From positions 25,158,225-25,222,224 of the forward strand of contig CM120640.1 in NCBI GenBank assembly GCA_051362555.1: 64,000 nt of DNA, written 5' to 3'. The first letter of the stretch is position 1, and the number at the start of each line of letters is the position of its first letter. The notes under the pieces are model-generated. The model was not told the origin of the DNA and did no database searches. It saw only the letters and a program-made list of their open reading frames with translations. Source of the DNA: Lingula anatina. Its lineage: Eukaryota; Animalia; Brachiopoda. The translations under genes and the position numbers were made by a program. Of the stretch, positions 10,090 through 27,192 are shown one piece after another.

Positions 10090-13000
10090 TTAGGGTGCCT
10101 GCACCAAGTTGCCCTCTCGTGCATAGTCTTGGATATCTTGCACTAAGTCCAGTCTTCCCATGTCCCGCAGGCAGTTGATCACATCACTCACGGTCACGTT
10201 AGAGGTTTGGCACCACTCTGTCAGCACAGCATCACATGGGTTCTGTTGCCTTTCCAGCACCTGGACTTCGAACATGCTCTTGCCTAGTTGAGCTGAAGAG
10301 ATGTCACATTTCATTTATTTATTTATTTTGATGAAATCATTGTTATGTTGTGAAGCATGTTGTTAAACGGTCAACCCATGTCTTTGTTACCAGTTCCAGA
10401 GAAAAAATAATAATTTTAATAATAATAATTTTTCGAACGGTAGCGAGAACTAAATTCACCTATAATTAAACAAAAACTACATTCTTTCAATTTTTTAATC
10501 AAGGAAGAGTCTTGATTTTTCAAATATACCGACATGATAATCATCTTTATATGACATTATACCTTGGCTGATGGGATGGCCATGAATCTTTATCAGCACG
10601 GTATTAATAAATCTCGACCTTGTTTTGCGTACAACGATTTATCGTAAATCATGATGTATACAGAATGAAGAAATCAAAAGTTTACGATATTCTACGTCTT
10701 TGATCAATGTCATTTTCTTTTATCAATTGTAAGATAATCTTTTGTTAAAAATGATTTATATTAGATGTCTACAAGAAGCTCTAGAAAAAAACTGGAGTTC
10801 GGCATATTGCACTCTGGGTCATTTCCCTAGATACTGCTCATGTTATCAGTATCTTATTAAGACGCTCAAGAGCATGATTATCAAACTTACAGTGGGAGAA
10901 GAATCAATCACGGATTTTACAGCAGTATGATTACATATTTGTTCTCTCTCTCTCTCCCTCCCTCTCTCCCTCGTCAATCTTACCTGCCAATCCCTTCCAG
11001 TCCCTACCAAAAATACTAGGTGTATTTAGGGCATTACACACGCGGTAGTATATGTCAGGTGTCAGGCTTTTGAATGAAGTATCTGCCCAACACTTCGCTG
11101 TCAAATCATTCTTCTTGCGTTGAAAAATCTTTTTCTCATCTGAGGTTGCCGTCTTATCTAACCCAACAGCCTGAAAACAGATCTTTTAATGTCACATGTG
11201 ATGTTTAATCTGTTTGAACAAAGTTTCAAGATTAGTTTTAAATGAGAATACAAAACAGGTTGATTCAAAAGAGTCAAGGTAAATATTAGACATAGTTATT
11301 TAATGAGTGGGATATATCTCGTGGTTAATTGTTGGGTATCAATATGTATGAATCAGTATGATATATAATTATGATGAAATTAATGAACTTCTTTTCCCTT
11401 GAATTCTATTAAAAAATGCCACCCGGTAGGGTTATCCAGTGCATCTAATTCTCCTTGCTAAATAATTTATATATCATTCACAAATTTGCTTGGTTGGATA
11501 GTTTTTTTTTTCATCTTTTTGCTTATCGTTGTACATGTCGCTAAAGACAAAAAAAGAAAACTTACTTTGCTCCCTTGCAACTCGATCATTCGTCCACGAC
11601 ACCAGAATGTCGTCTGCTTCTTACGTGACGCTGAGGCATCTTCTGTGTTCATGGACCAGGTTTCAAGAAGGTGAATATCCTGAAATGGAAGAGAGCCCTT
11701 ATTGAATCCAGGTGAGTACAACTTACAAGGATTTTTTTCCAGTTTGAATACCACAATAAAAAAGAATGCATTATATGCTTTATCTTTTTTTAAAGTTGTA
11801 TTATTTGTTTTTTACAGGGACTGCATTTATATTTCAATGAGTACTGTTGATTTTCGCAGAGTCTTATGTAATACCACATTACTGGTACTTACTGAATTCT
11901 CTTGGTCATGAGCATCCTGAAATGGGCATTTAGGGCCAAAAACGTAGGAACATTTCTCAAAATCCTGTGACACGATTCTTTTCAGATTGTGTTGGATTGC
12001 ATCTAACACTATGGCCGGTTCACGGCCTCTACCGCATCTTACAGTCACCTTGATCATTTGGCTTTGCTGGCTAACAAAATCTTCATTTCCAAGAAGTTCT
12101 AGCTTCAGTGCATAACTGTTTTCAAAAGTAAATAACGCAGCACTTTGTGAAATCCGAGGCACGGCGATATTTCGTAGGTTATCGTATTGAACACATTGGC
12201 ACACAAGTCGTAGGAAAATAGTCTGTGGGGGAAAGCATCCAAAGTCTACATAGTAAATTATATCTGAGTCGACGTCGTCATCCCACCATCCACTTAGATG
12301 TTTGGTATGAGGTAGCAGTTTTGGCACTATATAATGGAAACCATTATTGTTCAGCATCACTTTACATATAAGGTGATAATGCTGCAGAAGGTCTATCAAA
12401 CTCTCCTGGACATTGGCGTTTGTGAGGTCAGACAGCAAATGTTGCAGTAAAGGCGTGGAAAGCGTTCCAGTGTTTTTCAGGTTTCTCCAATCGTCCATTA
12501 ATGAATGTTTTTGTTTAGATAAAGATGGGATGGTCACTATGGAGGCCATGATATTGACCAGTAACTGTGGGTCAAAAACAATAACATCGGACAGTTTTCC
12601 ATTTGCTTTGTAAATAATTTCACCAATGAAATGAAAGAAGTTTAACATGTCTTTAAATTCGTCTTCATCTTTAATGTGACACTGGTTCTTTTTACACACT
12701 TCGTAAAGCTCTACAAAATTTCCAATGAGCTGTCCATTCTCTCTCCTTTTTTGAATAACTTCGTGTAGCGCCAGGTATTTTATGGGCCACAGTTGCTTTT
12801 GGAATTCGGACTCACGCGCTATGCGCATCAGTGTTTTCCGCAAATGCTCATGGTCAGCATCATTAACAGATCTGAGACTATTTTCCACCGGAAAAAGAGG
12901 CGTGTCATCCTCATTCCATATCAAAAATTTGTGCAAGTTGTGTGGCAGGCTGTTCCTCAAGAAATTGCCTATTTCTCTCACTTTCGTTGGTCCCACCATG

Positions 13001-14553
13001 TTATGATCGCGGTGAGTTCCAACTATCAGGACGGATGCGTTTGGGTACTGCGCGTGCACCTGTATTGAGTGTAACCAGAACAGCAAGCTGTTCAGAGATG
13101 TTCGAGCATCGAGAACAGCGTCCTTCAAGTTGAACACGACAAGGTAAATCGAATGTGCCGCCATGAAGATGTGATGTACGGAATGGTAGAGAGCATGCCC
13201 AGCATAGTCTCGCATTACCAATTTGACTCTTTCCCTGCGACGATGGCGCGCTTGTAAAACTTTGCTCGGGGAGAGCGAAGTGCTTTTGAATTTGTCGTTG
13301 CCGTGCTTTTGAGGACTTCGTTTGAGGCTGTTTATTAAATGGAGAAGCTCGACTCCAATAACAAAAGTTAGACCGACAACATGTTTGCCTAAATTAAAGT
13401 TTCGAGGAAACCTCCATCCTAACATGAAACTGAATCCAAGCCCGGGTATGATTCCTATGGCGTAGGTGATGAGACGACGCGTCTGCGGTTCACATAAAGG
13501 TGATACACGCTCTTTAAACAATAGGTAGAGTTTCTGTCCCACGGAAAGAAACACGCCGTGCCCGTAACCACAACCCAGGCCAAACACAAGGGTAAAAATA
13601 CTGCTGCTTTGTGTCTCTGCAGCCCTAGAAGCGACAATGGCAAGAGCAGGGACAATAATCCAAGAAATGACTTGTGGAAATTTTTGAGTCCCCAATCCCA
13701 CGCAGGTAGATAGCATGAAAATGGCTTGATGGTGATAAAGGCCAATTGGGCATGTAAGTGGTTGCGAGTCTGTGGCCACGGGAGTGTCCATAATACACAG
13801 AGTCAGGGTCATGCCAGTCCCTAAAGACATCCCACAGGATAACCCGATGTAACTGTCTATTAAGAAAAACAACACAAAGCCAAGTGTTAATGCTGGAAGA
13901 AGACCGTAGTCAGAACTCACTTGCTCAAAATGTTCGTGGAGTTGCCATCGGCACACACCGTCGGACCATAGCGCCAGAATGATCACGCCTATTGCTATAC
14001 CAAACCCATCCCGGAGTCCGAAGAAACACACAGAAACTGCATACGTTAGAACCAGAAGGAATCCCATCCATGGGACCTGGTCTGAAACACGTATGCTGAC
14101 ACACAAATATGCTGACAGCAAGCCAGCTACTAAGAGTAAAATCTTAAGAAAACATTTACAAGACGCCAAAACGGCGTTCTTTGCACTAACCTTGCGCGAA
14201 GGTTTTAATCGCATAAGTGTGTGTACTCCAAGCGCTTCCTCGAATTCCGAAGCGTTTGACAGAGCTACGTCAACCGTTTTCCATGACTCCGTTAAACCCG
14301 ATGTGTCCACTAGTCTCTGTTCAATACCGACGGTGCTCATTTCGTTCATATCAAACGGATCACAGGTCAACATTTTCCTAAGGCTTGTTTTGCCTTGTCG
14401 CTCTTTTCCGACGATGTTAACGACCACTCTTTGGTGAGCTTCTTTCCCTTCGTCTAAAGCGGTTTGCTGAGCCTGCAAACCAGCAGGACCGCTTACAAAC
14501 CCAACACCAGGTGTAAGACCCATCTCAAAAATGGCGTGGCTTTCGTCGCCCAT
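10090..14553 (-). CDS. Roco-family protein (Roc GTPase with a multi-pass transmembrane insertion, COR, death domain), about 1054 aa
   Basis: Exons 14553-11893, 11679-11566, 11170-10984 and 10292-10090, phases 0/0/1. G1 GKERQGKTS, G2 STVGI, G3 DYAG followed by YHSVHHIF, G4 VGTHRD, G5 region FPVEN. COR-like segments MLNFFHFIGEIIY, VFDPQLLV and YIVPKLLP. C-terminal death domain DWKGLAAQLG...VLTEW...VSDVINCLRDMGRLDLV. An acceptor at 14595 and a donor at 15566 suggest a 5'UTR exon. Confidence 0.88.
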
Positions 14554-17291
14554 AGTTAGGGCAATGGTGAGCTCGACACGAATTTCTTTTGTGACCTGAA
14601 AAAAATGGGAAATTCCGACTGGAGGTTATGTTTTCATGGAATGTGTAGTTGCATTAAGCTCTTATTATATCTTGATCTATCTTGCACTACTATCGAACAT
14701 TCGTGTCTCTGCGCGTGACTCGATTCTTTCAACGACATTTGGTTTTCCAATTATCGTCTTATAAAAAAAACAATTTAGTATATGTTTGCACAACATTACA
14801 TTGCATGTCTTTGTAGCACGCTGTTTAAGTAAACCACAACTATCGATAATATTAGATATGTGAGAGATTGGTTTCTGTCGGAACTCGTATAAGTGAAATA
14901 TAAAATCATTTAATTTCAAGATGTGATGTTGATATATAAAAAACCGATGGTAAACCATGGACAATTATCTAGTATAATTGCATTCTAGTTTATAAAATAT
15001 AAATTTTGATTTTAACATTTTGGAAATATCATGGCACATACATGTAGGAGCGTTTGTAGTTATGACGCCTTCCTCTTTTGCGTGTGAGATAATACACTGT
15101 CACCCAAGCGATACATGTGCCAGAACACCTCGAGCGTCAGCAAGAGGTATTCAAGACATATTGCGAGAGGGTGGCAGTGTGTTTTTTTTGGCATACGTAC
15201 CGGGGGAAAGTATTCGCGTCTCACTTATTAACGTAAGTGTTATATCAATAAAGTGTTGATCGCCGCGGGCATATAACATCTCTAGGTATGTATTGGTCTA
15301 CAAAGGATCAAAGGGGAACACCTCGCCACCTGAACAATGCTGGCGCATTTTATTTCCGCTTTAGCGATGACACGAAGCATCTAGACAGTCGGCTACTTTC
15401 CAATTATGCCCTATACGTTTGGCAATGATTTAGGTCTACCTTTCCATGCCCAGCCTGACGAGTAGGGTAAAATAGCTATCGATCCTCTCACTAATCCACT
15501 CTTTATCAAATCTAAAAGGCGAATCAAAAGAACAAGAAAAAACAAATACATCACTCTCAACTCACCCTCTTAATCAATCGACAAGTTCCTCAACTCTTGC
15601 TGAATACTGCCAGTGCATCCCTAGCAGCTTTAACAATGTATGCTTTACCAACTTTATACTGAATTGACAAACGACAGTAAGAATGTCTTCTGCACCTCCG
15701 CAAGAAACACCTTCTGACTCTCGAATATTTACCTGTTTGTCATTTTTCTTGGCACCAGACCATCGTGCACATATTAGGACTTTCCGAACGTTTATTTTTA
15801 GCATAACGACACTAAGCGTGATATCTGACAACGCGGACACGAAGCTGATAATGGAGCTGTCAAATTAACCCTAAATTAAACCACTAGTAGAGTGCGTGTG
15901 ACAAGGTCGTACCAATGGTGTCTCCTTTTTTCACATTGGGCGTTATACGTATCGGTATCGAAAAACTTAAAATGGCCCTCACATACATGTTTACTATAAA
16001 TTGTACCTTTACCTCTGAGAATGTCATATATTGTAGAGGTAGATTCTTTATACCTATAATCGTAATAGTGAGGAACGCGTGAAGAGCACAGCGGTATGTT
16101 AGATAATTCGTGGGGCATTTTGGTCCAAAGTAAAAATCACCAGTAACAAGAAACTGATTTAAGAAAAGCCTAATAATACCGGTACATTTTCCATGATAAA
16201 TATTAACTGCAACACCGAGTAAAAAATTGATATAAAAGAGTTTTTACTTCTTATCCGTAGCTACACAAAGCATAAAGAATTGTATCGATACATGTAGCCG
16301 CTCTGGTTATTACCCGCTCCCCACCCCCACCCCCCAAAAAATAATAATATACAATCACATCTCGTTAATCAACTTTAGCTGGTAACAGTGGTTTTGCAAT
16401 CACTCACCTTACCAGTCATAGCACGCGCCCCTCCCCTTCAACGGGATACGGTTACATAAGAAAAATCTGTATATCAAATTCCTTTCAACCGGTATTTTGT
16501 TTTATTGTGGTTTGCAAACATCGGCTAAACCGTGGATACAATTTAATTTCTTGACATGCTATTGACACTGGTTCAATTTATCCGTAATTTACACACTACT
16601 GCCAGTCCTTATGTTTGAACATTGAGTCATACTTCCTGCATCTGCTATCTCCATAAGTCAAGAGCTTAAATTAATGTCCCAGTGTTATTTTATACATCGT
16701 GGGAGAATGCACCGGTCTTTGATCATCTTTAAAAACGTTTAAATCGATTATCAATGTTTAGCAATGTATTTTATTCTCTCTCCGCTGTACACTTTTTTGG
16801 GGGGTTAAACATATTTTCAAAAATTTTAGGATTTTTTTTAAATAACGAATTATTATAGGCAATGAATGAAAAGATAATGCTGTAAATGATTCGATCATTA
16901 TTTGAATGAAAACGGTGTAAATTACTGTCGCCTTTGAAACACTTTTCACCACGATACAACCTTCATTGAACTTTAAGCAAGAGCTAGTACAACTATATGT
17001 ATATAGGTAGAACAACATCAGGTGCCACGGCCTACGAGTAGGAAGTTAACGCTGTTGATACTTACTGTATGTTCGAATGTTTCTAAAACGTGATACGTAA
17101 AGGTGAATATTTCTAAAAAATATTTATCATAGCATCATGAATATTTCTTTACTGTTTGTGCGTAAGAACCAAGTCTGAGTAGGTTACGTCTTCTTTTTTT
17201 TTTTTTTTTTTTGTCGATGGAAAATGTACTTATTACAGTGAATTGCCAAAGAAGCTATATCTAGCTATGATTTATTTTGTCTTTTCATTCA

Positions 17292-18840
17292 TTAGCATTC
17301 CAAGAAGCCTTTCTCTTGCGAAAAAGTCAGTCTCCAAATTTGAGGTGGCGTGTTCAAGCTTACAAATACAGTAGTTTCGTCCGAGGAAGATGAAATATTC
17401 CCTCCCCACCTGAATGCAATACCCTCCAACTGTTGACTTGTGGTAGGTATTTCAAAATCCCGACTTTCTGAAGTCTCTAAGTTCCAGGAACGGACAACGG
17501 CTTTGCTATCCAATAATGCATACAAAGTATTGTTATAAACACTTAAAGCACCGATTTTCTCGTGGACGTGTAAAGATTGTAATGCCACTGGATGTGAATG
17601 CAATTCGGAGGTGCTGTTGTTGGTGTTGAAGGTGAATATCTGGATGAATTGCTCTGAGGTAGCGAAGAAGGTTCCAGGCCTATTCTCCATCTCTCCGCTG
17701 CCGACCCAAACACTGTCACTGTAAGCAATGCCCCCAAAGCTAGGATCACGACCTGCGTGTGAATACCAAACTTTATAATTTGTACAAGTTATTTAGATTT
17801 TTTTCTTTTTCAGAATAAAATATCACACAGTTTATAGCCCTGACCTACGTTTCACTAATGAAATTAGGCAAATGATTGATAATGTAAAGGAATTTGTACT
17901 TTGATAAAATGTAGCTCTAAAGTAGTCAAGCAAAATTTTTAAAAGCTGGTCTTAAAACATTGTTATATATTTTCATGTAAAACAATTTAAATGTCCCAGT
18001 TAATTGGATATTAATAAATTTTGAGTCGATTAAAGTGCTTTGCTTTACAGAAAGGCCCACCTTTGACTTCTCTTTTGATGATAGGTCTTTGTAGGCCTAT
18101 TTAGAAGTGTGCTTTTCAAAGCTTTTTTAAAGTGAATTTTTTTTGCACTTAAAAGTGTTGTTGCTAATGCTACATACATCTGGGATTATCATGAAAAATG
18201 CTAACAAATTTTTTTTCGGTGAGATTACTGTAATCAAAACGAACACTATTTACTGTTGGACTGTAATTTGTCTAAAATCATATTCTAAGATAGCTACAAC
18301 AAAATAAATCCCAAACTTTTAGATTTCCTTTTGACAGTATGATCAAAAAAGTTTCAAATCCACAAAACAAGAAAAATGGCCCGGTTTGTTTTCATTAATT
18401 ACCTAAAAGGTGTTTCATTTCTACAACATCTAAAACCGTTCTCTTCTGAAGATCATACATCAGAATTCGGTTGGTTGGGAACTCAGTGGCGATGTATATG
18501 ATTTGAGGTTTATCTGCCTTTGTGAAAGTAAGTCCTTGAAAATCGTACTTCTCCTTCCCTAAAAATACAATAAATGGACTTAACAAGAAAAAAAACTGCC
18601 AAGAATAAACAATAAAACTTATTGCAAAATTCACCCATTCTTAAAACGTTTTGCTGGGATATATATATGTGTAATTTCAATTTTATGCCCCAAGAATAAA
18701 AGTTTCCTATACATATATTTTGTTGGCCAAGATATGTGATGGAGACGCAAAAGTCCAGTTTAGGTATACGTATTAGATGACGGATTAGAGCTCAATCCAG
18801 TCAACCCCTTTTTTAAGTCATGAAATTAATCATGGTAGGC

Positions 18841-18906
<66 letters not shown>

Positions 18907-19520
18907 TACGCATTACTTTGGCGTTTCAAGAGAAATGTTCAACTTACCTCTGACATGTATGCTTTCTTCCAGAACTTCAGTGTAGATATTTATTTTGGCT
19001 ACGATGTTGCCTGAACACGCCCACAGGTACCGCCCCGATGGATCTAACACCACGTCACTTGGTTCAAAGAATACGGGGAAAATCGTGTTGAGCTTGTGGC
19101 AGCGGCTGGATTCGTGTAGAATATTACGAAAACCTTGAAAGTAGTCAATTTGTTATGTAGGATGCTAGTTCATATTTAATCGGCACATATTCTTACATAA
19201 CCCTTTTGCAAGTCTGATAAGGTTCTATATAGGAATTGGGAAATATATCTAATCACATACGCTAAGTTTTTAACTATTCATCAGCAGTTACACCATTTTG
19301 AAATGTGTTGTTCTCACCATTCCCAATTAAGTTTTCCTTTTCCAGTCGTTTCAGATAATTCCTGGATTGTAAACTGAGCATTGACAGAATGGCCACACAC
19401 AGAAACAATGTCAACACAGCAGGACCAAATGCATCCTGGTATCCAGTCTTTGAAGTATGCTTCAGCCGATACAGCCGTAGCTAAAAGCAAACCGGCAATT
19501 CTGGTCTTACGTTTTGATAA

Positions 19521-19556
<36 letters not shown>

Positions 19557-22500
19557 CTTGAATGCTACTGAAATATTACAATAGCCGATATGCAAAAGTG
19601 ACAACGGCAATGTCTTGTAGCACTAATTAAGTAAATTTCATTGAACCACAGAGAACACATTTTGAGATGTCAGATTTTGAAGTTCGGTGTGCCTTTTATT
19701 CGCCCATGGTCAATAATCATAACGATATTGTCGTTATTTATTAAAGAAAAAAAGGTTTGTACTCACGTAGTACATAATCGTGGCATAAATGAGCATAGCC
19801 ATTGCCAGTGGAAGAAGTAAGAGACCTGTGATCAGTGCTTCATTATCTCCCAGTGCAACAAGTGCTCCGCTCAGTGTCACCTAACAGGTGGTAGAAAGGA
19901 TGGACAGAAATGTGGTAGTGAAGACGTAAAGCTATTTTGAGTTGATTACTAATCCGAATAAGGCAAAGGCCCCATCACATTTGTTTATATAATGCCTGCA
20001 TGTTTATATCCCTATACGGCAATTCATAGAAATATACAATTTGTTAGAGATAAGATGAACATTTCTTAAAAACTTTTTGAATGAAAATAAGTTTACAATA
20101 CATAAATATATAAATAAATTACTAGTAGCAACGATGCCGTCAGCCATTGAATGAAGGTTCTTTCGTTTGCAAAGTAAGTCTTGGGTTCTACTTTCAAGCG
20201 TCTCTTTTTTTGGGATGTCGCACAACCTGAAGCATTTTTCTGAAAACTTCTCGAAAACTTTGGTAGTTTTGTATGTCGGAGACGCAGTGCACCTACATCA
20301 ATTGAAATATGGGCATTTACACTTTTTATCGAATGTGAAGTGATCTTTTGAAAAACAAGTATTATATAGACTTTTTAAAATTATATTTATAAATCAAAAC
20401 ATCTTTACAAACGAACAAAAAAATGAATGAAAAATATTCTTATTTTGAACCTCCGCATAAGCCGGTTTATACGCACTGTTTTGCAACATTTCAATAAGGG
20501 GAATAGTCGGCATTTTAGCGTTCTCGTCTGTCACTTGGATGCTGCTTTCCCCAGTTCCACAGTTTAATGAATAGGATGTTGAATCTCCAGTAGTCTCTAT
20601 GACAGAATTTTGATTCACAGATAGACGGTGATCGTTTCCCTCTTGATGCAGTAAAACCTGTGGAAAAAATAAATAAAGAGCGCCTACATCATTTATTAAG
20701 CTGGGGACGCGTTAATGTTTTGAAATAAAAACCACGTTTACGACTTTTTAAATGCTGAACGGGCCTCATAGTAATTGCGGCTAATCGTCGCCATGCATAC
20801 CTTACTAAAACCAGTTTTACTCCCGTGAATGGTGACATCAGCGAACCAGTCTGGAAACTCCTTTATCCTGTGAGGGTAGAAACAGGTTGTCGCTTGTTGA
20901 GATTTTGAGAACTTTTCCATGCGACGGACACTAGGGTGCTCTAATAGAAGTCTTAGCCATTCAGGAAAAGTAGACCCAAGCTCTACTTTGAGGATGCTGT
21001 ACGGGAACTCGCAATAGTGGCGGTTCTCAACTATTTCTAGGAGAGAATTTGAAGGAGATATTATCGAACATGTTGCGTCAGCTTTGAGCCGTCTATTTGT
21101 AGGCATCTTAACGTTTAACCCAATAAAAATGATGTTCATCATTTTAAACCTCTTTTGATGATATGAAATCGTTAGATGAATTTATTAGCACGTAGAAAAT
21201 TAATTTCAAGTACTTTATTTAACTCACCATCTTCGTTTCGCTTCCATTGTGAATTTTGTCGGCCACCCTCATCGACAAAAATGAGATCAGAATCTAAGGT
21301 GATTCTGACTTCATTGTCATCAGGGCTTTGAAATATCATTCTTTTGCATGCCGTTCTCACCAAAGGCTCCAAATTATCTCTATTGATGACCTTCTGTGCC
21401 TCATTTCTCAAACGCGTCTCTGGTTTGGCAGAATCACAAAGAGAGGCAATTGGTTCTCCTGAAAATAAAGTTCTTGTATCCACTACCGTGAAATGAATAT
21501 AGACGTGAAATGAATATAGGTTTTTGATCTAATAATGTTATATGGGATACATGCAAAAGAATAGGTATTTTCACTTGAATTTCTTAACATGTGACTGTAA
21601 TAAAGGTAAGGCAGACAAAGCATGCTCCCATACCTTTTAAATAACTGAAAACTTCCTCTTCGTTCAACGGAAATCGTTCCGTTTTATTGCAAATACTTTC
21701 GCTGTTGTAGGTTTTCTTCTCAACGTATACTATCGAATCAAGTGGACTTGCAAGAGGAACTACCTGTAGAAAAGTTGATTGACAGGTACTAATCCGTAAA
21801 TTTCGTTAAAATCAATAAATCTTAATTACATAAAAAATTGCATATCTTGAAGCAACAGAAGCAATATCATTGAATCAAAATTTAAAAATATCTGATTGAT
21901 TTAAATGACATCAAGGACTATGGTTTAAAACTCACGTCTTTATCGAACAACGTTTTGCGTAACCCAAGTTTACATTTCTATCCATTACCCCATCAATTCC
22001 GAGTATTCGGTAACTGCGTGTAACACACAAGCATAATGGATTACTATTGCTCACCAACTAAACACCAAAAGACTAAGAGCACGGTTAGTACCGGACAGTG
22101 TCTTGAAATCTGACGCAGTGACTGATCACTGTAAACATACCTCCCTCCCTTGTGAAAGGTTGTGCCATCGCAGCCGTATGGCCGTGGCGCTTTCGTCCAG
22201 TCGCTGGAGGCTGTGGTAAGAGAGCAGATCTGAGTTATCCAGAAAAACCGAGGAAACCAATGTCATGAAAGGCGGTGTGCTTTCTATGAGACTCTCGTGA
22301 GGCTCGGGGTTGCAATTAAGCTGGGGACTTATCCTGAAAATTTAGTTTTTAAAGTTAATAAAAGCGAATCTTCTGCTCGTTTTTTACGGGTCACGAGACA
22401 GTACTTTTTCTAAAAAAAAAATGGTAATAAATTATTGCAAACGGAGGATTGCTCAACGCGTGACTTAAATATAAAAATATTGAAATATTGGTAGTCTTCC

Positions 22501-23845
22501 AGCGTCTTGTCTCATGGAACCAGTGTAACGCCGTACACCAATTAAGCATGTACACGTGATTGTATTCCACCACTATGTCATCAGTCAGGGTCCAGTATTT
22601 TTCCCTTTTTCGCTGTTTTAATGCATCTCGTCTCACGAAGCGTTCTTTCATAGTTGCGGCTCTCTTTGAAGAATTTTGTCTAGCTATCCATTTTGGCTAT
22701 TGATAAATGGGACTTTGCTATCAAATCTTAACTTGAATATCCTTCTCCCAAAATTCTAATATCTCTTAGATCCCATTTCCAGAGATTAGATCGATCTACT
22801 TTAGATCGACCTAACTCCCTGGGGGTTCACGCTAAATAGCTGTCAGCCGGGCGGACACGAAAGCTAATTACCCCCTTACAGCTTGTAGTAGGCGGGACGG
22901 ACATTTAAGCCGGATTATCTGACAGTAATCTAGGCAGACTCCCCGCGGGAATAGATCGATCTAAAAGCTCTGGGAATACAGCCTTATTTCAGGTTCTGAA
23001 TGGTAGGCTTATTCAAGAAAAACAAAGTGCTTGAGCCATTTAGGTGATTCAGGTGCAAAACCTGAAACGCCTTTGATATCTAAAAATGATTAATTTTAAA
23101 TAGTGAAGCGTAGTGAAGCATAACGAAGCGTAAAAAAAGGGATTTAGAATGGGTTTACAATTTGGTCTTACCTGTACATGTCATTTCGAATGCTGATTGG
23201 TAGATGCTTGATGAGTTCGGTCTTAACCGCAAAGACATCCTCTGTTTTTACCAAGTGTTTTAAAATGTTTCGCTCAAACAGTTTTTCTTCCACATTTTCG
23301 CGTATTTTGTTATTTTTTGCTTTGTCTTTACTTCTTGTTTCTGTGTAAAGAATGCTAATGTGGAAAAGAAATGCGTCCAGTTCATTTAAATATCTGGCAA
23401 AGAAGGCACCATGATTCTGTGAAAAGTACCAGTCGCTGGTTATCCCTGTGATTAGGTCGTGTTTTTCAATGACGCGGTCCATTCCTTCTCTGTTAAGCAT
23501 GATGAATTTTTCCATATCTTCTAGTTCAGTAACGAAATCATCGATGAACTCCTTGAATAATAATTTCTCAGGAATTTGGCTATCGGTGTTTCTGATGTGC
23601 CCCCCGCATTTTTCTTGGTCTCGGTAATATTGAAGGCGCTGAAGGGTCATGCGTAGTTCCTGGAGCTTCAGATTTATAAATGTTTTGATCCGCTCCAATT
23701 CTTCGTTGAAAAGAAGCAAAAACTCACCTTCCCCGGTGGCCCCTGTGATGTTGTGAGCACAGTTTTTCAGAGATTCGTATCGCATAAAGTGGTGTCCGTT
23801 TTTCGATCGGAGACAGTACTGATCGCTCCTCCCCTTGAACTTCAT
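17292..23845 (-). CDS. Vtc4-like putative polyphosphate polymerase: SPX, VTC (TTM/CYTH tunnel), DUF202 (3 TM), C-terminal beta-propeller-like domain, about 964 aa
   Basis: Twelve GT-AG exons splice without stops: 23845-23172, 22333-22141, 21763-21634, 21458-21228, 21036-20801, 20657-20477, 20292-20123, 19880-19767, 19480-19318, 19133-18948, 18558-18403, 17752-17292. The exon 6/7 junction has alternative in-frame choices. SPX motifs: MKF, RYESLK, LNREGMDRVIEKHD. VTC motifs: FERNILKH, SSVFLDN, AIRLRW, VYVEKKT, ERFPL, VRITLDS, FPYSILKVEL, KFSK, FPDW. DUF202 motifs: KVEPKTYFANERTFIQWL and YQDAFGPAVL. Confidence 0.9.
18843..18904. repeat. (TA)n microsatellite
   Basis: Perfect run in an intron of the Vtc4-like gene. 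Confidence 0.95.
19521..19546. repeat. (GT)n microsatellite
   Basis: Perfect GT run in an intron of the Vtc4-like gene. Confidence 0.9.
22769..22983. mobile_element. MITE, PIF/Harbinger (Tourist)-like
   Basis: Imperfect terminal inverted repeats (gatcccatttccagagattagatcgatcta ... tagatcgatctaaaagctctgggaatacagcc) flanked by TTA on both sides. Lies in intron 1 of the Vtc4-like gene. Confidence 0.6.
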
Positions 23846-26541: not shown

Positions 26542-27192
26542 GGGGACAGCGCGCTGTGCCGAAGGTTCGCTGTGCCGAGGGTTCACTGTGCCGACAAAAC
26601 CGGAAAATTGGTCTAAAATTGGCTAAGTTTTTCCGGAGCCCCAAAATCAAAGGTTCGCTATGCCGATGGTTCGCTGTGCCGAGGGTTCGCTGCGCCGAAA
26701 AAGGCTACCCATCACCCATTGTGCTTGTTATGTAACGTGGCGAGCAGTGGCCTTTCTTGAAAATAAACGAGTTTTAAAAGTTCTCTTCTTCCATCCGTAC
26801 CATTTGAATTTGTTAAAACTGCGCATTGAAGGTTTATCCTTATGGACATAAACATCTTAAATCGCTTTAAATAATCAGTTCTGTAAGTTAATTTATTAAT
26901 TATTTTTGGCACTATGGGCGTCACCCACATTTAGAAAATTACTGACAAGAAAACATTCTCTAATTATTTTTGGCGAACTTGTTGTAGTTATTGGGTGTGT
27001 GTAAAATTAACATCTTTTTAAAAACAATCGGCATAGCGAACCCTCGGTATAGCGAACCTTCGGCTCAGCGAACCCTCGGCATAACGAACCTTCGGCATAG
27101 CGAACCCTCGGCACAGCGAACCTTCGGCATAGCGAACCCTCGGCACAGCGAACCTTCGGCATAGCGAACCTTCGGCATAGCGAAGCGCACCC
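26542..27192. mobile_element. Non-autonomous foldback-type DNA element with inverted subterminal 16-bp tandem arrays
   Basis: Unit gcgaacc(c/t)tcggca(t/c)a, about 9-10 copies at 27030-27185, with inverted copies at 26552-26594 and 26650-26699. GGG...CCC termini, flanked by the direct repeat GCGGTAGC at 26534-26541 and 27193-27200. Confidence 0.75.

Follow-up and report, generated by a model that had tools for sequence, protein, structure and literature searches.

The closest described counterpart of the gene analysed here is yeast Vtc4, in which E426 chelates Mn and the substitution Y359F lowers polyphosphate (polyP), according to parts of 10.1101/2023.01.27.525886, from which the list of triphosphate-binding residues used below is also taken; the SPX cluster sites follow passages of PMC9911596. 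Passages of three papers state that animals lack VTC (PMC10704438, PMC10657179, PMC12526157), and metazoan polyP kinases are called elusive in a section of a 2026 paper (PMC13061417). The main text of the Lingula genome paper (PMC4595640) contains neither 'vtc' nor 'polyphosphate', and a full-text literature search, with subscription papers outside its coverage, returned no report of an animal VTC or of a propeller fused to VTC4; database entries are already named 'vacuolar transporter chaperone 4-like [Lingula anatina]'. Lingulid brachiopods have apatite shells and contain Ca/P granules; polyP has been proposed to be present in these granules, without having been identified there, as stated in a portion of PMC3824353. 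With respect to propellers, part of a review describes that loss of Pseudomonas CarP disturbs Ca2+ homeostasis, and a table in it groups CarP with SdiA-regulated homologs (PMC10574481). Leishmania VBP2 is described, in sections of PMC13375126, as a separate luminal propeller protein that binds the VTC complex by pulldown, for which the authors suggest a structural or signalling role.

The window is the whole stretch of Lingula anatina DNA that was analysed, 64,000 nucleotides long. On its minus strand, we identified a vtc4-like gene (23845 to 17292) with 12 exons, 11 GT-AG introns and 964 codons without a stop, whose predicted protein joins an SPX-VTC-3TM frame (aa 1-697) to a C-terminal addition of 267 aa (aa 698-964). 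Between exon 9, which carries TM3, and exon 12 lie three phase-1 GT-AG introns with lengths of 184, 389 and 650 nt. The features are the following:

23172..23845, minus strand: exon 1, SPX-like domain (aa 1-170) and start of the VTC/TTM domain with the K200 equivalent (Pfam SPX E 0.02, under cut-off)
22141..22333, minus strand: exon 2, VTC domain, R264/R266 equivalents kept, R253 changed to L (Pfam VTC E 2.7e-4)
21634..21763, minus strand: exon 3, VTC domain, K281 equivalent kept (residue alignment)
21228..21458, minus strand: exon 4, VTC domain, R361 kept, Y359 changed to C (Pfam VTC E 1e-13)
20801..21036, minus strand: exon 5, VTC domain, S457 and K458 kept (residue alignment)
20987-20989, minus strand: in exon 5, Lys at the position of E426, the Mn ligand (same residue in database proteins P0002 and P0003)
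20981-20983, minus strand: in exon 5, Glu at the position of K428 (same residue in P0002 and P0003)
20477..20657, minus strand: exon 6, linker; the 184-nt intron downstream is spliced in reads
20123..20292, minus strand: exon 7, linker and TM1 with the equivalents of channel residues K622/R629 (Pfam DUF202 E 8.4e-5)
19767..19880, minus strand: exon 8, end of TM1 and TM2
19318..19480, minus strand: exon 9, TM3 and a short luminal neck (predicted)
19134..19317, minus strand: intron 9, the connection between TM3 and propeller, 184 nt, GT-AG, phase 1; in-frame stop after 13 codons, ATTAAA at 19180
18948..19133, minus strand: exon 10, closing strand with C709 and propeller blade 1
18403..18558, minus strand: exon 11, blade 2; D765 and E785 kept, family E767 changed to Q (18536-18538)
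17292..17752, minus strand: exon 12, blades 3-5 and stop, four sequons, terminal C964; family E818 changed to G (17733-17735), D945 to N (17352-17354) and W920 to L; K877, D893 and E921 kept
17271..17276, minus strand: AATAAA, candidate polyadenylation signal, 16 nt past the stop

Single-exon Pfam scans found a weak SPX match in exon 1, VTC matches in exons 2, 4 and 5 and DUF202 in exons 7-8, and hydropathy analysis indicates three membrane segments. SPX, VTC/TTM and the three-helix DUF202 are present in that order, with SPX being weak (i-E 7e-5 to yeast Vtc4). The initial annotation had reported that three exons add about 265 aa after TM3, with blade-like motifs and NxS/T sequons, and the gene model agrees with this description: the frame is stop-free across exons 9-12, all of the quoted motifs are present in exons 10-12, and the sequons are located at N856, N857, N885 and N930. 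Nearby in the window are a Roc-COR gene, an exon encoding a death domain and a galactosyltransferase, and the base composition of the vtc4-like gene matches the rest of the window; together with a repeat in intron 1 that is abundant in the organism's RNA, these observations argue against a contaminant origin. The repeat (22770-22986) has an RNA depth of about 200-1000-fold, mostly from other copies (90-95% alike, with loose ends), and is likely a short transposon. The Roc-COR neighbour is a single-exon, Roco-like frame of 932 codons (11827-14625, minus strand; Pfam Roc E 5.5e-12, COR-A E 1.1e-11), with several hydrophobic segments between the P-loop and the remaining Roc domain, followed by COR-A; a membrane insert within a Roc GTPase is unusual. 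Upstream of the vtc4-like gene, at 26560-27190 (minus strand), two arrays of a short imperfect tandem unit are seen by eye in inverted orientation.

The C-terminal addition has no name in single-exon Pfam and NCBIfam scans of the window. An AlphaFold2 prediction with 43 sequences gave five four-strand blades and an N-terminal closing strand (pLDDT 88, pTM 0.81), as the annotation's propeller proposal had anticipated; prediction from the single sequence was poor (pLDDT 45), and a structure search with that model gave only generic propellers. With the pLDDT 88 model, Foldseek listed only WD40 entries in its top 50, and the first match in the VIA search was E. coli YjiK (3qqz_A, Z 21.5, rmsd 2.6, 211 residues aligned), tied with glutaminyl cyclase 3mbr_X, the next family being at Z 17.8. 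The proposed kinship to YjiK/SdiA-regulated proteins gained further support from an Atlas comparison of the paralog's propeller (SdiA-regulated, feature score 0.94, TM 0.69/0.77) and from the family profile, which scores 33.4 bits against E. coli YjiK (best of 500 shuffles 7.3; hhalign 96%) and matches 58 of 60 bacterial PF06977 loci at E ≤ 0.001. YjiK is favoured over glutaminyl cyclase by the Atlas, profile and gene-neighbour evidence, in a comparison that covered fold (a tie) and sequence (no hit to the cyclase). A word-indexed search with the propeller region gave no match, and the same kind of search missed most VTC4 relatives. Neither Lingula propeller (P0001, P0004) has a PF06977 Pfam match, and none was found at gathering score in 41 homologs, where sub-threshold Pfam matches occur in four (SdiA-regulated in 2, Phytase-like in 2); the propeller is a homolog of the PF06977 family and not a Pfam member of it. 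Beta-propeller phytase, which has six blades, was considered and rejected, with five blades predicted and Phytase-like hits only sub-threshold in 2 of 41 homologs. The position of three helices after a catalytic domain that is cytosolic in the yeast topology, the four sequons and C709, a residue that 38 of 42 homologs share and that may be bonded to the terminal C964, suggest that the propeller likely lies in the organelle lumen.

We compared a profile of P0001 and P0004 to 1.84 billion representatives and obtained 2217 hits at E ≤ 0.001. The join of VTC to propeller is found in the Lingula paralog P0004, and a propeller follows TM3 in 46 of the 150 top-listed VTC4 relatives, a fraction that is not a prevalence because the search profile included the propeller domain. 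Twenty of the relatives were named by look-up, and the carriers include Owenia fusiformis, Gefionella okellyi (Malawimonada), Coscinodiscus wailesii (a diatom), Mesostigma viride (Streptophyta), Cavostelium apophysatum (Amoebozoa) and Gloeochaete wittrockiana (a glaucophyte); many VTC4 proteins, fungal ones included, are without propeller, and the fungal protein P0005 ends at TM3. This wide eukaryotic distribution suggests that the VTC4-propeller architecture is old, and, judging from the proteins compared, it is not a Lingula invention. The initial annotation had regarded the propeller as an addition that would point to a donor lineage, which does not agree with an old eukaryotic architecture. 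A recent bacterial donor was not supported, as identities to bacterial propellers (13-24%) are no higher than those to protist ones. A tree was built from 43 hand-picked rows of the 150, and its groups were named once a tree had been seen. It unites the three animal proteins in a single clade (100/99), within which the two Lingula copies are sisters (100/98), placing the duplication after the split from Owenia. The grouping of the animal clade with a Choanoeca-containing clade (74/51) is unsupported, and its grouping with the fungal clade is rejected (p-AU 0.014, 43 rows). The Choanoeca tail was not counted as a propeller, with 8.1 bits on the propeller profile, within the shuffle range (maximum 10.1). 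A second Pfam-less domain type is present after TM3 in P0008, P0060, P0123, P0101, P0139, P0079, P0011, P0057, P0063 and P0114, with P0060 carrying both this domain and a propeller; an Atlas search with the second domain type was without match, and its kinetoplastid counterpart might, as a guess, be VBP3/Vtc6, which is luminal and TTM-like.

Comparison of the VTC core to yeast Vtc4 (yeast numbering) shows that the window copy keeps the entire triphosphate-binding set (K200, R264, R266, K281, R361, S457 and K458), as well as R373 and the channel residues K622 and R629. The changes are E426 to Lys, K428 to Glu and Y359 to Cys, with R253, H283 and W287 altered too, whereas the paralog P0004 and the Owenia protein keep all catalytic residues, including E426 and Y359. 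Of the 150 aligned proteins, 149 have both E426 and K428 and the window copy alone does not; its 8 deviations at 19 tunnel sites are also the most among the 150, in an alignment gathered with a profile dominated by the intact paralog. The E426 change is not a sequencing error, because the same change is present in P0002 and P0003. With the Mn ligand E426 and Y359 absent, we do not class the window copy as a catalytic Vtc4. Unique changes in the core are significantly more frequent in the window copy than in the paralog (50 vs. 24, p = 0.003), and in the TM region the two copies are 73.5% identical. In the SPX domain, the phosphate-binding cluster (Y22, K26, K133) is kept in the window copy, and the lysine surface cluster K129/K132/K136 is changed to R/E/L; this surface cluster is lost in both Lingula copies, for which control by inositol pyrophosphates may thus be altered, and Owenia retains all six SPX basic sites.

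In the propeller, the polar residues with the strongest conservation are S723, D765, E767, E785, E818, K877, D893, W920, E921 and D945, which are situated at blade starts and at the ends of second strands; by topology, the seven acidic positions would lie on one face of the predicted propeller. Among 34 fully covered homologs, 6-7 of the seven acids are kept in 26, 0-2 in 8 and 3-5 in none, where the sites were picked from the same alignment, a single clade supplies 22 of the 34 rows, and 8 rows with partial coverage as well as 3 weak hits were excluded. The paralog P0004 and Owenia keep all seven acids and the window copy keeps four; for the blade glutamates 767, 818 and 921, the corresponding numbers are three of three in the paralog and Owenia and one of three in the window copy. 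All 16 bacterial homologs in the alignment, namely YjiK and 15 selected among 58 hits, have these three glutamates, and the putative acidic pocket is, on this alignment, common to eukaryotic propellers and their bacterial homologs. Such an all-or-none acidic cluster would fit an enzyme as well as a binding site.

SdiA-regulated genes occur near ppk in Bacteroidota, which was the starting point for a count of gene neighbourhoods. Across 201 genomes, PF06977 is present in 56, ppk in 171 and VTC in 33. We examined 6 kb on each side of 60 Bacteroidota PF06977 matches (58 of the 70 of one set and 2 others). At four of the 60 loci, PF06977 comes directly after VTC and DUF4956 genes (0.04 expected by chance), and at three of these four the genes share a strand; ppk1 is within 6 kb at five loci (0.25 expected by chance), with both counts and chance expectations ignoring kinship among the genomes; neither VTC nor ppk1 is nearby at 51 of the 60. 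The four VTC genes beside PF06977 are only 40-46% identical to each other, suggesting that the linkage is old, and the four VTC operons share an upstream gene and so may represent one old event. A metallophosphoesterase-Omp85 gene is found near 22 of the 60 loci, and a gene that we take to be HD-PycTM, the HD label being our assumption, near 20. A cluster that recurs in Bacteroidota (L177-L218) consists of an SdiA-regulated propeller, a metallophosphoesterase-Omp85 fusion and a PycTM-domain protein, often with a cyclase and ppk1. In two regions inspected around plasmid or phage YjiK, we found no polyP genes.

The conserved acidic pocket and the bacterial gene neighbours lend support to the idea of the initial annotation that a luminal propeller could bind cations or phosphate, or trim the chain. 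Our preferred reading, to which we give about an even chance, is that a luminal five-bladed propeller of the YjiK/SdiA-regulated family is attached to a Vtc4-family protein, where it would likely hold divalent cations and catch polyP, and that the window copy is likely an accessory protein beside an intact paralog; a copy in which the domain is kept while the pocket and the catalytic metal site are given up fits the pattern of an accessory subunit. In this arrangement, the intact paralog would make polyP from ATP, and the chain would be threaded, as in yeast, through a channel built of the three-helix domains. The luminal propellers would bind divalent cations with their acidic residues and hold the emerging polyP chain, and the window protein would add channel helices and a structural propeller to the complex. 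The Lingula arrangement would then parallel that of yeast Vtc4 and Vtc2/3, reached independently.

The main rival explanation, which we regard as possible though doubtful, is that the propeller is a metal-dependent phosphohydrolase that trims luminal polyP or another phosphate ester and releases chains, with the window copy being a pseudo-enzyme. Homologs either retain the acidic cluster with its Ser and Lys as a whole or have lost it, and its conservation extends to bacteria, where the neighbours are phosphate enzymes; Atlas clusters carry Phytase-like PF13449, and the five-bladed Ca-activated nucleotidase 2h2n_A is among the structural matches (Z 15.1). However, the literature found records no catalytic activity for the YjiK family, K877 is replaced by Asp in most bacterial homologs, and eight intact-looking VTC4 proteins have lost the cluster and keep the domain. 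A different objection concerns the core, as the window gene might encode a still active polymerase with a rewired metal site rather than an accessory subunit, which we consider unlikely. Some activity may remain, given that K458, which is lost in yeast Vtc2/3, is kept and that a Glu is located two residues from the lost E426 on the same strand; the other triphosphate-binding residues, R373 and the channel residues are likewise kept, and Y359C is found in 6 of the 150 aligned proteins. Against this stand the changes at the otherwise invariant E426 and K428, the additional changes of R253, H283 and W287, and the doubled rate in the core.

That the propeller is a structural lid, or an assembly or sorting module for the channel, in which any bound ion only stabilises the fold, appears improbable to us. 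Eight of 34 homologs have the domain although they lack the acidic cluster, the propeller of the window copy is not evolving faster despite its lost pocket residues (17 changes vs. 23 in the paralog), and a structural or signalling role is what the authors of the VBP2 study suggest in part of their paper (PMC13375126). This explanation nevertheless leaves unaccounted for the same surface acids in 26 of 34 homologs and in bacterial proteins, as well as the bacterial polyP neighbours, and many VTC4 proteins, including those of fungi, manage without the domain.

The reality of the fusion itself bears on all of these readings. RNA was sampled from 8 of 9 runs (6-26% of each, depth about 1-2), of which 3 were without exon coverage, and expression of the gene is very low in these samples. 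They contain 11 junction reads in total, 5 for intron 6 (in 2 runs) and 6 for intron 11 (in 2 runs), and 0 for introns 9 and 10 at this depth, at which exons 8-9 are uncovered. The nearest named proteins are from Lingula anatina (96-99%): the database models P0001 (333 aa) and P0002 (761 aa), which are 96% identical to the window over the propeller, join TM3 to the propeller identically, and the model of P0003, with 99% identity in the N-terminal half, stops at the end of exon 5. The public Lingula set holds the gene in two near-identical versions, 96% and 99% identical to the window, on separate contigs; these are either alleles or a recent duplicate. The paralog P0004 (973 aa) is collinear, with 50% identity over the last 337 aa (E 2e-116). 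A stand-alone gene for exons 10-12 is unlikely, since the first Met within them is M793, inside blade 2, and exons 9 and 10 are only 184 nt apart. Sequence comparison confirms exons 10-12 as part of a real VTC4 fusion, with the 9-10 splice free of spanning reads. It is very improbable that exons 10-12 are a separate gene, or that the main transcript stops within intron 9 and the predicted fusion is an artefact, as junction 9-10 without reads, the in-frame stop and ATTAAA in intron 9 and the truncated model P0003 might suggest. The same fusion recurs in the paralog, in the Owenia protein and in roughly 44 proteins from outside Lingula, several of which come from transcriptome assemblies, and there is neither an upstream Met nor room for a first exon.

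Taken together, these findings place spliced VTC4-family genes in a brachiopod and an annelid, against their stated absence from animals, and because the propeller escapes Pfam, a common VTC4 architecture seems to have been overlooked. The fusion to VTC4 provides a first functional handle on the uncharacterised YjiK family, and the Lingula genes make the presence of polyP in Ca/P granules testable. A broader proposal, to which we assign a low probability, is that YjiK/SdiA-regulated propellers are an unrecognised metal-dependent polyP module, located beside bacterial polyP enzymes and fused to VTC4 since early eukaryotes, and that a two-subunit VTC that arose by duplication in Lingula loads Ca-polyP granules feeding the apatite shell. 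We treat the link to the shell only as a hypothesis, because Owenia and protists carry the same fusion.

Compared to known systems, the window protein resembles yeast Vtc4 (PDB 8i6v_E, 7ytj_D) in the order SPX-TTM-linker-3TM and in most triphosphate-binding and channel residues, with matches at E 3e-27 for P0002 and 2e-78 for the two-protein profile. It differs in that the yeast protein ends a few residues past TM3, whereas the window protein continues for 267 aa, and in the absence of E426, Y359 and the SPX lysine surface cluster. As in yeast Vtc2/Vtc3, a catalytically impaired paralog would stand beside an intact one, likely in the same role; in contrast to Vtc2/Vtc3, the lesion is at E426/Y359 and not a change of K458 to Ile/Leu, and the window copy stems from a duplication after the Owenia split and carries a propeller. 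With E. coli YjiK (3qqz_A, PF06977), the propeller shares the predicted five-bladed fold, profile homology and common acidic residues, at about 17% identity and with no Pfam hit. YjiK has a hydrophobic N-terminal segment ahead of its propeller; the bacterial members, CarP included, are separate proteins, whereas the Lingula propeller is fused behind the VTC membrane domain and its pocket is partly lost. The bacterial glutaminyl cyclases 3mbr_X and 3nok_B match in structure (Z 21.5 and 20.5) without a sequence hit. Leishmania VBP2 is likened by position, its propeller also being in the lumen, where TM3 of Vtc4 ends; it differs in being a separate single-pass protein, predicted to be six-bladed, Fla1-like and kinetoplastid-specific in the sections consulted of PMC13375126. 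The same full architecture is shared with Owenia fusiformis CAH1787178.1 (P0006) and the paralog P0004, which, unlike the window copy, retain all catalytic residues and 7 of 7 pocket acids.
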